A stretch of 47,479 nt of DNA, filler included, from Catajapyx aquilonaris (lineage: Eukaryota): NCBI GenBank assembly GCA_000934665.2. It is 2 parts of 2 records of this genome, joined end to end, with 100 filler letters (N's around TTAATTAATTAA, not from the genome) between each part and the next. Parts side by side here need not be neighbours in the genome. Positions count along the whole stretch, not along the records: positions 1 to 23,400 come from JYFJ02005680.1; 1 more part is not named here. One strand, given 5' to 3'. This document shows, one piece after another, positions 15,001 to 18,000 of this stretch (its first letter is position 1; every line of letters starts with the position of its first letter). The notes under the pieces were generated by a model. The model did not search any database and was not told the origin of the DNA. It was given only the letters and a program-made list of their open reading frames with translations. Both the position numbers and the translations under genes were made by a program.

Positions 15001-18000
15001 CAAATAAAGTACAAAAGTGGTGCCAAGTGCTGCAGATAATTACCACAGAGTTTTAGTAACGTTATACATCAGCCACAGATTGCAAACCATAACACAAGTA
15101 TGTTTTTTTTTTTTTGTAGAATGAGATAACCATATATTTGTTATATTTAAAAAATAAGGAGGGTGTTTTTTGTGGTTATCAAATAAAAAATTAAAATCAT
15201 AGATAACTGAATAAAACCTCTCTGGAATAATATTGACCAACTCTTTTGTTTCACCACAAACGTCAGCTTGAAAGATTTGTCAGACACTGAAATCCATTTC
15301 ACCAAAAGGGTTCTCAGGGATTAAGCTGCCATATTTTTTTTTTTGTAGTATTTTGGCTAACTTGCACCTAAAAGTTGTAGCCAAATCAGAAAAGTTGTAG
15401 CCAAGATCTAAATGCATCTCAGGAAATATGAAACAGTAAAATACACTCCAAAGTCTCATTCTACAAAAAAAAATAATCCATCCTTGTGTTAGTTATGGTT
15501 TGCGATCTGTGGCTTGTTGAAGCGACTGATGTATAACGTTACTAAAACTCTGCATACTCAGGTCAGTGGTAATTATCTGCAGCACCTGGCACCACTTTTA
15601 TACCTTATTTGTAAAGAGAAAAGAAAAAGGTTTAATTTGACACCAAAATCAGCCCAATCGGTGAAAAAACAAGTAAATTACGAGGATATTTCTAAACTGA
15701 TGCAGAAACTCCGACCACTTGAATCATGACAAAATCAACATTTTCAAAACTTTCTCCTGAACCCAATTTTGGACCAAAAAATTTGGAAAAAATGATTTGA
15801 TGTCACTTCATACATAGCTGCTCATGTTAAAATTTTGAAAAACATCTGAGATGTGAGAGCACATGGCACCAGGTGATCTAGCGTGGAATGACCCTCTCCT
15901 ATAAATGACATTTGTTACAGCGAAATACACAGGCCGTATGTAGAAGCGTGGCAGGGCCAGCCTTTGAGTCTGTTATAGTCGAGTCTGTTACATCTGAAGT
16001 CAACTGTAATTGAATTTGGGAAGCATAGCAACAAAGCTCTCCATATTTGACAACTTCCTACATCCCCTCCCCACCACAACAAAAGAGAGAAATATACAGG
16101 GTGGTCGGTAAATGGCGCACAAGCTTCAGGTAGCGAGATTCCTTGTGAAAAGCCAGTAGTGTATATGGAAGAAAATGTCCTATTGCTCTACGATGCCTGG
16201 TTAGTGCTCACGAGGCCTCCAAAGTTTGGGCCAAATCATGAAGTCACATCTGCCTGCGAAATTCAAACACTACCATATCACTGTACACGGTGCGTCGCCA
16301 TGTTGACATCCCCAACATTTTTGCCAAACAATGGAACCATATAAACTCACAGGGGCGACAGTATGGCAACGTACCCAGGCATTGCCATACCGTTGTCCCT
16401 GCAAGTTTATACGGTTCCATTGTTTGGCGAAAATGTGGGGAATGTCAACATGGCAATGCACCGCGTATAGTAGCGATACGGCAGTGTTTGAATTTCGCGG
16501 GTCGATATGACGCCATGATTTGGCCCAAACTTTGGAGGCCTTGTGAGCCCTAACCAGGTATCATCAAGCAATAGGACCATCACTTCCTTATACTGGTTTT
16601 TCACAAGGAATCTCGCTACCTGAAGCTGGTGCGCCATTTACCGACCACCCGGTATATACACAGGTGTTACAAGCATGAGGGTTCCTTTAGTTATATGAAA
16701 TTTCACTCAAAGCTAATATTTCTGGGTAGCTTGTTCCACCCCTATCCATGCAACCTATTATATAGCAACTCCTACATTCAATCACCAGGGAATAATTGGG
16801 CACCTGGGTTGGGGCACAACAAGCTGCACAAAAACTACTGAGGGCCAATATTAACTAAAAATGACCTCGGAACACCCTGTACAACTCATACCATATTAGT
16901 ATAACCAGCACTGTACTAGCAAAAATAATAACACTCCACAATTCATCCATACCTGAGGAAAATGATCTGTACTGGTGCAAGCTGGAAGTTAGAACTTCTG
17001 GGATGACAGAGGATGGAGGAATGGTAAGGAATGCAAGAGAGCCTATGAGATGACTACCTTCCTCCCCCTTGCTTATAAAACAATCTAAGGTACAGAAATT
17101 CCCAAAGTTGTAGCCTCGAGACTTCTCAACCCTAATAATCATCCAGTAACTACATATTGGCTCTTATATCCCTTGTCAGATAAGATGAGAGAACAATAAT
17201 GCACTGGTTGGATTGATGGTATGCATTGTAAGTTATGTGAGTACATATTTGCTTGTTCCTAACCTCTCTGGGCACAGCCCTCTTGGGCTCCACCTCCCTG
17301 CCGTCGACGCGATGAGGTCGAGCTGCCTGAGCATCATCCACCATGTGAGACTGGGAGTACGTGATGAACCCAAAGCCACGAGACCTGCAACATCCATTCA
17401 CATTTGCTGCCTGCCGTCCTCATGCCCCTACTCACGTACTCACGTGGGTGAGTTGGTAGGTAGGTAGGTAATCCTAAATCCTATCACTAACAACCCTGCA
17501 TATTAAGCCCCCTACTCCTACTACCTCCCTAACCCCTACCTCTCAAACCCTATATCTCCCCCTTGAACAGACCAACCCACATTTACTGCCCAACTCCTAA
17601 GCTTACCTCTTGGTCTTTGGATCCTTCATGACCACAACATCCACAATCTCTCCCCACTGCTCAAAGTGCTTCTTGAGGGACTCATCTGTAGTCTTGTAGT
17701 CTAAGCCTCCAATGAACAGCTTGCGGAAGTGCTCCGGCTCGGAAGAGTTACTCTAAGCACAGCACGACGGGTGGGGGGAGAAAAAAACATTGGTTAGGTG
17801 GGATTGTTTCAGGATCATGCGAGCACTTGACTGACCTTGGAATTTCTGGAGGAGCGGCCATCAGGACCAGCTGGAGGGCCACTACTAACTCCCCTCCCAT
17901 TCTCTTCCTTCACTACAACACCATCTTGCAGCACAACTATTTCCACCTTTCCTGCAATTGACTCCCAACCCTCCTCGCTTTCATCCTCCCTTCGGTCAGC

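Follow-up and report, generated by a model that had tools for sequence, protein, structure and literature searches.

A 222-nt intron that is dense in TAGG motifs splits RRM1 of an hnRNP A1-homologue gene of Catajapyx aquilonaris, and it is best read, with moderate confidence, as a constitutive intron that has grown through slippage-prone, G-rich sequence. The original prediction was of an autoregulatory switch, in which the protein of the gene would act through UAGG sites in its own pre-mRNA on 5' splice-site choice or intron retention and thereby on NMD. The results bearing on such a dedicated switch went mostly against it, and a neutral origin is somewhat more likely than a function. The preferred reading is supported by three repeat tracts, the shuffle odds, the non-conservation in relatives, the clean splicing, the lack of excess fold and the commonness of the immediate stop. 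It is weakened because the cluster is rare, lies on the sense strand and occurs in a gene of a UAGG-binding family, and also because this is the sole G-rich intron of the gene, with the weakest pyrimidine tract, a UAGG 8 nt past the donor and recurrent YAGG repeats in relatives.

The hnRNP A1 homologue and its RRM1 intron

Judged by its RRMs and its closest named homologues, the gene is a homologue of hnRNP A1/A2B1 of the insect Hrb87F/Hrb98DE type. It comprises seven coding exons and six introns (428–429 codons); the joins were taken from a spliced contig of run X1 (see below), and the resulting frame is open. Positions refer to the window, i.e. the whole stretch of DNA analysed (47,479 nt including filler).

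6047..18003, minus strand: hnRNP A1/A2B1-homologue gene (ATG at 18003, stop codon TGA at 6049-6047)
17607..17752, minus strand: exon 2, first half of RRM1, ending in ...KDPKTK and the first two bases of an Arg codon
17385..17606, minus strand: 222-nt phase-2 intron splitting RRM1, GTAAGC...TTGCAG (sequence; joint in the spliced contig)
17264..17384, minus strand: exon 3, second half of RRM1 (SRGFGFITY...AVPRE; sequence and spliced contig)

The joined translation gives two RRMs followed by a Gly-rich tail. The RNP-2 and RNP-1 motifs of the RRMs are present (LFIGGL with RGFGFITY, then LFVGGL with RGFGFVEF), and Pfam RRM_1 was matched at E 3e-9 by exon 2 and at E 5e-17 by exon 4. The best relatives with solved structures in the PDB are human hnRNP A1 and A2/B1, with E values of 3e-24 for exon 2 and 3e-42 for RRM2. 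When proteins were searched with exon 2, 535 of 539 candidates had E ≤0.001. Named homologues among the best 120 of the 539 are mostly insect proteins designated 'heterogeneous nuclear ribonucleoprotein A1, A2/B1 homolog' or '87F', and identity to these over exon 2 is 77–95% among the matches listed. Identities found with RRM2 did not exceed 66%, a springtail being among the best named matches and a copepod reaching 55%, and exon 1 gave no match among the first 120 proteins. The Gly-rich tail includes a ...PMR...RPGPY stretch, which we take to resemble an M9/PY nuclear import signal.

The predicted 222-nt intron splitting RRM1, with nine TAGG motifs of which five are TAGGG, was reproduced in all coordinates and counts. 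The nine motifs are at 17599, 17552, 17538, 17531, 17520, 17514, 17483, 17476 and 17430, and the TAGGG forms include TAGGGT at 17552-17547 and TAGGGA at 17531-17526. Eight TAGG lie upstream of both GTGAGT sequences (17443 and 17435), also as proposed. The elements of the intron are given below.

17603..17605, minus strand: in-frame TAA, translated if the intron is retained (AGG TAA)
17596..17599, minus strand: UAGG located 8-11 nt downstream of the productive donor (motif scan)
17510..17552, minus strand: core of the TAGG cluster, 43 nt with five TAGG, among them TAGGGT and TAGGGA
17473..17483, minus strand: two more TAGG (ATAGGATTTAGGA; motif scan)
17444..17470, minus strand: pyrimidine-rich tract, a (CCTA) microsatellite and then AACTCACCCAC (sequence and TRF)
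17429..17445, minus strand: tandem 8-nt duplication carrying two donor-like GTGAGT (TRF period 8, 2.1 copies, 100% match)
17407..17415, minus strand: GGCAGGCAG, the sole copy on the minus strand of the window
17385..17407, minus strand: purine-rich 3' splice-site region (pyrimidine count)

Composition, repeats and predicted folding of the intron

Among minus-strand segments of 222 nt, at least seven TAGG were found over this intron only (maximum 9, mean 0.48), while the maximum on the plus strand is 4. The loci of relatives, 233 kb on two strands, include a single place with six TAGG. Dinucleotide-preserving shuffles of the intron itself contained at least nine TAGG in 41 of 5000 cases and at least five TAGGG in 106 of 5000, and in 15.8% of 2000 intron shuffles some 4-mer reached nine copies. 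The TAGG excess is thus clear against the window and modest against the composition of the intron, and it is mainly the G-rich composition that makes this intron odd. It consists of 37% G and 12% C with nine runs of at least three G, and is the sole G-rich one among the six introns of the gene. The four other short introns have no G-runs; the other short introns are pyrimidine-rich and lack TAGG, with 44–45% T in those of 71 and 66 nt, and 29% T and 34% C in that of 83 nt. A strong sense-strand G skew is seen at 17001-18000.

TRF detected three arrays inside the intron, with period 15 in two copies, period 4 in four copies and period 8 in 2.1 copies. The 15-nt tandem duplication at 17521-17550 is overlapped by the core of the TAGG cluster; the period-4 array is a perfect (CCTA)4 (17455-17470, 4.0 copies), and the ninth TAGG overlaps the second GTGAGT of the 8-nt duplication. 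By these tandem arrays the intron has the features of low-complexity sequence of microsatellite derivation. It resembles an eroded microsatellite in its (CCTA)4, its 15- and 8-nt duplications, its skewed composition and its lack of conservation, and differs from one in that the TAGG-rich arm does not form a clean array and that no other such tract, either (TAGG)n or (CCTA)n, was found elsewhere in the window. The window is very repeat-rich (81 TRF rows in 47 kb). Further copies of the intron sequence, as expected of a dispersed repeat or transposon fragment, were found neither elsewhere in the window nor among 80 loci; chance matches did not exceed 11–13 nt.

The pyrimidine-rich tract at 17444..17470 complements the TAGG repeats, and folding predicts that it pairs with the core cluster. 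The complementarity to upstream G-rich tracts on which a structural gate had been proposed is therefore real and is used in the minimum-free-energy fold, but the stability gained is no better than that of shuffled sequences. The fold of the whole intron has -52 kcal/mol, as compared with -54.3 +/- 3.6 after shuffling (z +0.65; 150 of 200 shuffles at least as stable), and the central hairpin has z -0.86, with 36 of 200 shuffles as good. Thus, neither the whole intron nor the hairpin has an excess of RNA structure, which counts against a dedicated switch. Rfam gave no match inside the intron at E ≤1. The intron is thus not recognisable as a structured RNA element, whether a riboswitch-like gate, an miRNA or a member of an Rfam family. 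Nearby Rfam matches are to miRNA families only, below gathering scores, and lie on a palindrome at 18098-18209.

Splicing of the intron and its counterparts in relatives

The RNA-like data come from one sequencing run (X1) of unspecified type, in the form of assembled contigs, which drop rare variants. A contig of 639 nt with a depth of 11.2 joins 7504|17263, 17382|17605 and 17752|17836 and removes exactly 222 nt at the RRM1 intron. All of the depth in the two bins over the intron is explained by this joining contig: 120 x 11.2 / 447 gives 3.0 as compared with 3.02 observed, and 231 x 11.2 / 447 gives 5.8 as compared with 5.81 observed. X1 has no other contig on the intron besides the one joining across it. 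The predicted alternative joints, 17444>17384 and 17436>17384, are absent among the joints of the X1 contigs, in which rare variants are lost.

Match to CAG|GTAAGT is 7/9 for the GTGAGT at 17443 and 6/9 for that at 17435, and the productive donor likewise scores 7/9. The twin donors described in the original prediction hence exist, but they arise from one tandem 8-nt duplication. Their use would leave introns of 59 and 51 nt, as had been calculated; these are somewhat smaller than the RNA-confirmed short introns of the gene (83, 71 and 66 nt), to which they had been likened in size. The immediate stop on read-through (AGG TAA) was likewise confirmed, yet it is generic. Any phase-2 intron with a GTAA donor will carry it, and among the 26 distinct orthologous introns 18 begin with GTAA or GTAG and show such a stop. 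At the 3' splice site, the 20 nt preceding CAG contain 35% pyrimidines, the lowest value of the six introns (50–75% in the others); the orthologous introns have a mean of 58% pyrimidines (26 distinct). Weak pyrimidine tracts are common in regulated or retained introns.

Both flanking exons were present in 78 metagenome loci, 27 of which carry an intron at this very phase-2 position (60–1670 nt; 26 different sequences). TAGG density in these 27 introns is 0–0.48 per 100 nt, as compared with 4.05 in the present intron, and all 14 of those not exceeding 208 nt are without TAGG. An internal GT[AG]AGT occurs singly in two long introns (1481 nt, L065/L066; 409 nt, L068) and is never twinned. The TAGG density on which the predicted sensor would depend is thus not conserved across the 27 same-site introns, whose owners are probably at a large distance. 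Over exon 2, protein identity among the intron-bearing loci is 62–91%; the relatives are not close, so that an element of recent, lineage-specific origin would escape notice in this comparison.

Of 29 cDNA-like loci of relatives, 9 have tandem (YAGG) repeats of at least two units close to the stop codon; the antisense control gave 0 of 29, and shuffles averaged 1.05. Clusters of the motif of the family thus recur just past the stop. The 3' UTR of the present gene contains no tandem YAGG. Short-ORF cDNA contigs of relatives were inspected as possible PTC isoforms: L031 and L029 differ by one indel, and L013 and L060 were uninformative.

Origin and possible roles of the TAGG cluster

In the preferred reading, the position of the intron inside RRM1 of an hnRNP A1/Hrb87F-type gene would be ancient, and the intron would be an ordinary, efficiently removed one. 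In this lineage it would have grown to 222 nt via local slippage and duplication of TAGG-rich low-complexity sequence; we infer that the TAGG-rich tract had a neutral origin. The inverted (CCTA)n counterpart, the doubled GTGAGT and the immediate stop would then be by-products and not parts of a device, and the productive mRNA would be the main mRNA. The protein of the gene may well touch the UAGG sites, since such motifs would be bound wherever they are present, and no dedicated 5' splice-site/NMD switch need be assumed. If the neutral origin holds, a cluster of its own motif in the gene of an RNA-binding protein is alone no evidence of a switch, and an immediate stop together with a cryptic GTGAGT would be cheap features of phase-2 introns.

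Precedents for a functional cluster come from vertebrates. Excerpts of PMC9634572 give UAGGGA/U as the SELEX consensus of hnRNP A1 and UAGG as its iCLIP motif, and state that human HNRNPA1 regulates its own exon 7B via CE1a and CE4, as well as its own intron 10, by retention of which autoregulation proceeds (Suzuki and Matsuoka 2017). Autoregulation of HNRNPA2B1 is attributed there to splicing in the 3' UTR linked to NMD (McGlincy et al. 2010). CE1a and CE4 are high-affinity hnRNP A1 sites (Blanchette and Chabot 1999; Hutchison et al. 2002; excerpts of PMC9634572 and PMC1079783). For insect proteins, binding motifs from SELEX (Blanchette et al. 2009) are cited in PMC4647562 and PMC6800468, and in the partly covered literature on Hrb87F/Hrb98DE autoregulation and NMD no such switch was found in an arthropod hnRNP A1 gene.

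Like CE1a and CE4 as there described, the present motifs are of the UAGGG type and intronic in an hnRNP A1 gene, whose own splicing they are proposed to alter. The two human sites, however, flank cassette exon 7B, which is looped out, and both isoforms are coding, whereas here one dense cluster occupies a single short RRM1 intron with no alternative exon known, and a truncated reading frame would result. What the candidate would share with HNRNPA1 intron 10 and HNRNPA2B1 is a negative feedback in which an hnRNP A/B protein acts via splicing on the mRNA that encodes it. The human events map to the 3' end or 3' UTR and have been conserved among vertebrates; the present tract belongs to the 5' portion of the coding region and is missing from 27 of 27 orthologous introns. 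Combinatorial silencers of UAGG and GGGG (Han et al. 2005; excerpts of PMC1079783) similarly bring UAGG and G-runs together near a 5' splice site. There, a cassette exon is silenced by exonic UAGG motifs that act with a G-run at its 5' splice site, whereas here the motifs are all intronic and their density is far higher.

The cluster could tentatively be regarded as a lineage-specific platform for the gene's own protein in negative feedback, a possibility that we consider real though on the unlikely side. It corresponds to the original prediction, extended by analogy to a direction of the feedback. Abundant protein would bind the UAGG 8 nt past the donor, spread over the cluster and thereby interfere with the productive 5' splice site, whose 3' partner is weak. 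The intron would then be retained or a downstream GTGAGT used, so that the TAA at 17605-17603 would be read and the mRNA lost. A motif density found nowhere else in the window, and on the sense strand only, is consistent with such a platform, as are the weak 3' splice site, RRMs close to those of human hnRNP A1 and A2/B1, and the tandem YAGG past the stop in 9 of 29 cDNA-like relatives. The two exact UAGGG[A/U] and five UAGGG fit the hnRNP A1 motifs, and human HNRNPA1 and HNRNPA2B1 are autoregulated via splicing (excerpts of PMC9634572). Against this stand the TAGG density that is not kept in 27 orthologous introns, the productive junction alone assembled in the contigs of X1, the lack of excess structure and the simple duplication behind the twin donors. 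Moreover, in classical assays a higher level of hnRNP A1 shifts splicing towards the distal 5' splice site (Mayeda and Krainer 1992; excerpts of PMC9634572). The distal site is here the productive one; hence feedback via 5' splice-site choice would be positive and not homeostatic.

Since the gene's own 3' UTR is without YAGG repeats, a platform of this kind could have moved. We think it doubtful that an autoregulatory YAGG platform of the family was transferred here from the 3' UTR to the RRM1 intron as a young, independent feedback loop. Equally doubtful is the route by which it would work, in which protein beside the productive donor, on UAGG repeats made by slippage, would lead to retention, the immediate stop and loss of the mRNA. 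Vertebrate examples of hnRNP autoregulatory elements are deeply conserved. If functional, the present intron would clearly exemplify the turnover of autoregulatory elements and would show how fast a splicing factor can gain feedback on its own pre-mRNA: slippage would have supplied the protein with a dense array of its binding motif, inside an intron whose retention already led to a stop.

The G-runs and the donor-like GGTAGG may instead be intronic splicing enhancers or an RNA G-quadruplex with a constitutive role, not a sensor, offsetting the weak purine-rich 3' splice site and keeping the intron efficiently spliced. G-triplets enhance the splicing of short introns, and this explanation would account for nine G-runs where four other short introns have none, for their coincidence with the weakest pyrimidine tract of the gene and for the clean removal of the intron in the X1 contig. 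It is nonetheless improbable: orthologous introns, most of which have a better pyrimidine tract (mean 58%, 26 distinct), manage without G-runs, and the enhancer would thus compensate for a defect made by the same insertion. Less probable still is an action as DNA and not RNA, in which the duplicated CACGTGAGTACGTGAG, some 560–575 bp past the ATG, would be a pair of bHLH or bHLH-PAS sites, with the G-rich non-template strand as part of a promoter-proximal transcriptional element. The cores CACGTG and TACGTG of CACGTGAGTACGTGAG are presumably bHLH or bHLH-PAS sites, and together with the G skew of the sense strand at 17001-18000 they favour this explanation; six-base motifs, however, are common, and there is no conservation in relatives.

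The 9-mer GGCAGGCAG of the intron also occurs in the 3' UTRs of 10 loci of relatives.

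Host gene and anatomy of the RRM1 intron

The intron of interest interrupts a complete hnRNP A1/A2B1 homologue gene on the minus strand, which has seven coding exons between an ATG at 18003 and a TGA stop at 6049-6047. Its introns are 83, 222, 9758, 71, 66 and 467 nt long, and all six exon joins are supported by contigs from the one public sequencing run found (X1), which are spliced. The joined reading frame is open over 428-429 codons and encodes two RRMs and a Gly-rich tail. Among solved structures, human hnRNP A1 and A2/B1 match best (exon 2, E 3e-24; RRM2, E 3e-42), and the top named homologues over exon 2 are insect "hnRNP A1, A2/B1 homolog" or "87F" proteins sharing 77-95% identity. 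For RRM2, no match found exceeds 66% identity, and the sequences searched include no close relative of the species.

17606..17385, minus strand: focal intron between exons 2 and 3 (222 nt, phase 2, GTAAGC...TTGCAG)
17552 and 17531, minus strand: TAGGGT and TAGGGA
17443 and 17435, minus strand: GTGAGT, proposed cryptic donors

The original prediction was of an autoregulatory switch, in which a UAGG-rich intron with twin cryptic donors and an immediate stop would couple splicing to NMD. The SELEX consensus of hnRNP A1 is UAGGGA/U and its iCLIP motif UAGG, according to the review PMC9634572. The anatomy and motif counts (nine TAGG, five of them TAGGG, both GTGAGT hexamers, and AGG TAA on read-through of the productive donor at 17606) were confirmed, and the candidate splicing-switch reading is unproven.

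One 639-nt X1 contig (depth 11.2) joins 7504|17263, 17382|17605 and 17752|17836; the second join indicates removal of exactly the 222 nt. As this contig by itself explains the mean depth of both bins over the intron (3.02 and 5.81), the productive mRNA is the assembled form. At this intron the productive junction alone was assembled, in contigs that can miss minor isoforms.

The TAGG cluster and its composition

Along the minus (sense) strand of the whole window, at least seven TAGG per 222 nt are reached only over the focal intron (maximum 9, mean 0.48), and the opposite strand never exceeds four. In the metagenome-contig loci of hnRNP A1-like relatives (233,178 nt, two strands), one place alone has six TAGG per 222 nt. 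It lies at L064:2869-3120, in sense orientation within the distal 3' UTR of an hnRNP A1-like transcript; seven TAGG are spaced along it, most of them as YTAGGC.

Shuffles keeping the dinucleotide content of the intron gave nine or more TAGG in 41 of 5000 cases, and some 4-mer reaches nine copies in 15.8% of 2000 shuffles. The excess is moderate relative to the intron's own dinucleotides; thus, its oddity is largely one of composition (37% G and 12% C, with nine G-runs of at least three). The other short introns of the gene are pyrimidine-rich, the 71- and 66-nt ones T-rich and the 83-nt one C- and T-rich, with neither TAGG nor G-runs. The focal pyrimidine tract is the weakest in the gene (35% versus 50-75%), and one UAGG lies 8 nt downstream of the productive donor. 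No second copy of the tract was found in the window or the 80 relatives' loci.

Other features cited for a switch support it more weakly than their appearance suggests. A phase-2 GTAA donor creates the immediate stop automatically, and GTAA or GTAG begins 18 of 26 distinct orthologous introns. Both predicted donors exist, but they arise from tandem duplication of a single 8-nt unit (TRF); a perfect four-copy CCTA array and a 15-nt duplication within the TAGG core are further slippage products. The proposed pairing of the CCTA tract with the TAGG core does appear in the predicted fold, but its stability is not above that of shuffled sequence (z +0.65 for the whole intron; z -0.86 for the hairpin, with 36 of 200 shuffles as good). 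An Rfam search of the intron gave no family match.

Orthologous introns and 3' UTRs of relatives

Scanning metagenome contigs with exon 2 yielded 80 loci, and both flanking exons were located in 78. The intron is absent from 51 of these, most being cDNA-like contigs and some intronless genomic copies. The remaining 27 have an intron of 60-1670 nt at exactly the same phase-2 position, which is therefore old. These introns contain 0-0.48 TAGG per 100 nt, versus 4.05 in the focal intron, in relatives that are not close (exon-2 protein 62-91% identical). Hence TAGG density, whose loss in relatives the original prediction had named as evidence against a switch, is not kept. None of the 14 orthologous introns of up to 208 nt contains TAGG, and GT[AG]AGT hexamers occur singly inside two long ones, never twinned.

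In six closely related loci (L003-L008) the intron is 78-80 nt long with an invariant core, GCAGGTAGTTAAGTGG, which could be a conserved element or reflect mere close relatedness. Three 6-kb loci (L016, L017 and L020, on contigs of 6-25 kb) have an uninterrupted ORF of 317-322 codons from exon 2 onward; these represent genomic copies of the hnRNP A1-like gene that lack introns and may be retrogenes.

Among 25 cDNA-like relatives, TAGG was observed 85 times in the 3' UTRs against 53.8 expected, a number equalled in none of 200 shuffles; its reverse complement and circular permutations were not enriched in the same 25. It exceeds expectation in 14 of 22 non-redundant loci and is not the strongest signal, ranking 8th to 19th among 256 4-mers. 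A tandem (YAGG) element of at least two units, typically CAGGCAGGCAGG or TAGGCAGGCAGG, lies within the first 200 nt after the stop in 9 of 29 cDNA-like loci; the antisense strand has it in 0 of 29, and 1000 shuffles give a mean of 1.05 (maximum 5).

L026, L027, L029, L043, L049, L051, L056, L064, L072: tandem (YAGG), 18-175 nt downstream of the stop codon

Several of the nine being interrelated, they perhaps represent four to six independent lineages. Judged from sequence, tandem (YAGG) may be a recurrent 3' UTR element bound by the gene's own protein, and the hnRNP A1 family apparently tends to carry its own motif. The focal gene's own 3' UTR lacks the tandem element. A 9-mer common in relatives' 3' UTRs, GGCAGGCAG, has one copy on the minus strand of the window, at 17415-17407 in the focal intron.

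Interpretation and further features of the gene

The chances are about even that this is a normal, constitutively spliced intron whose length has grown through G-rich low-complexity sequence. The absence of the cluster from every orthologous intron, the clear slippage signatures, the lack of excess structure and the assembly of the productive junction alone argue for such neutral expansion, and weigh against the less likely alternative of a lineage-specific platform that would bind the gene's own product and lead to retention and the immediate stop. In favour of the platform are a rare cluster on the sense strand of a gene encoding a member of a UAGG-binding protein family, the UAGG 8 nt past a productive donor paired with the weakest pyrimidine tract among the gene's introns, and the recurrence of the family's motif in relatives' 3' UTRs. 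Protein bound beside a donor usually represses it, as in cases such as PKM exon 9 (listed in PMC9634572); retention would therefore mean negative feedback. Classically, hnRNP A1 promotes use of the more distal 5' splice site (cited in PMC9634572 from Mayeda and Krainer 1992); since the productive donor is the distal one in this intron, a version based on 5' splice-site choice would give positive feedback. It is unlikely that the G-runs serve instead as constitutive enhancers offsetting the weak 3' splice site, and a DNA-level element built on the CACGTG and TACGTG cores is very improbable.

The nearest known systems are the CE1a/CE4 sites that surround mammalian HNRNPA1 exon 7B, retention of HNRNPA1 intron 10, and HNRNPA2B1 3' UTR splicing linked to NMD. 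The focal intron would resemble these in principle, but differs in its place within RRM1, in having one dense cluster and no cassette exon, and in not being conserved. In a partial literature search, no arthropod hnRNP A1 gene was described as having a switch of this kind.

Several further features were observed in and near the gene.

6834-6904, minus strand: 71-nt GC-AG intron (AAG|GCAAGT...CCTAG) in the Gly-rich region
6473-6480, minus strand: CAGGTAGG in the 467-nt intron 6
10811-11704 and 12599-13045: high-depth tracts in the 9.8-kb intron 3
18098-18209: near-perfect palindrome about 100 nt upstream of the ATG

The joint of the GC-AG intron is present in X1 contigs. CAGGTAGG, before the last coding exon and within ...GCTGCAG|GTAGGAAAA, resembles a fused acceptor and donor, for which no RNA support was seen. 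Very high X1 contig depth over the intron 3 tracts (bin means 373-4852) points to expressed or multi-copy repeats. The palindrome, also of very high depth (bin mean 2050), gave Rfam matches only to miRNA families, below gathering scores, and probably represents a MITE-like repeat located in the promoter or 5' UTR. Tandem repeats are very abundant in the genome, with 81 TRF rows in the 47 kb of the window, mainly AT-rich arrays whose periods range over 10-33 nt (e.g. 31027-31602 and 43027-44082).
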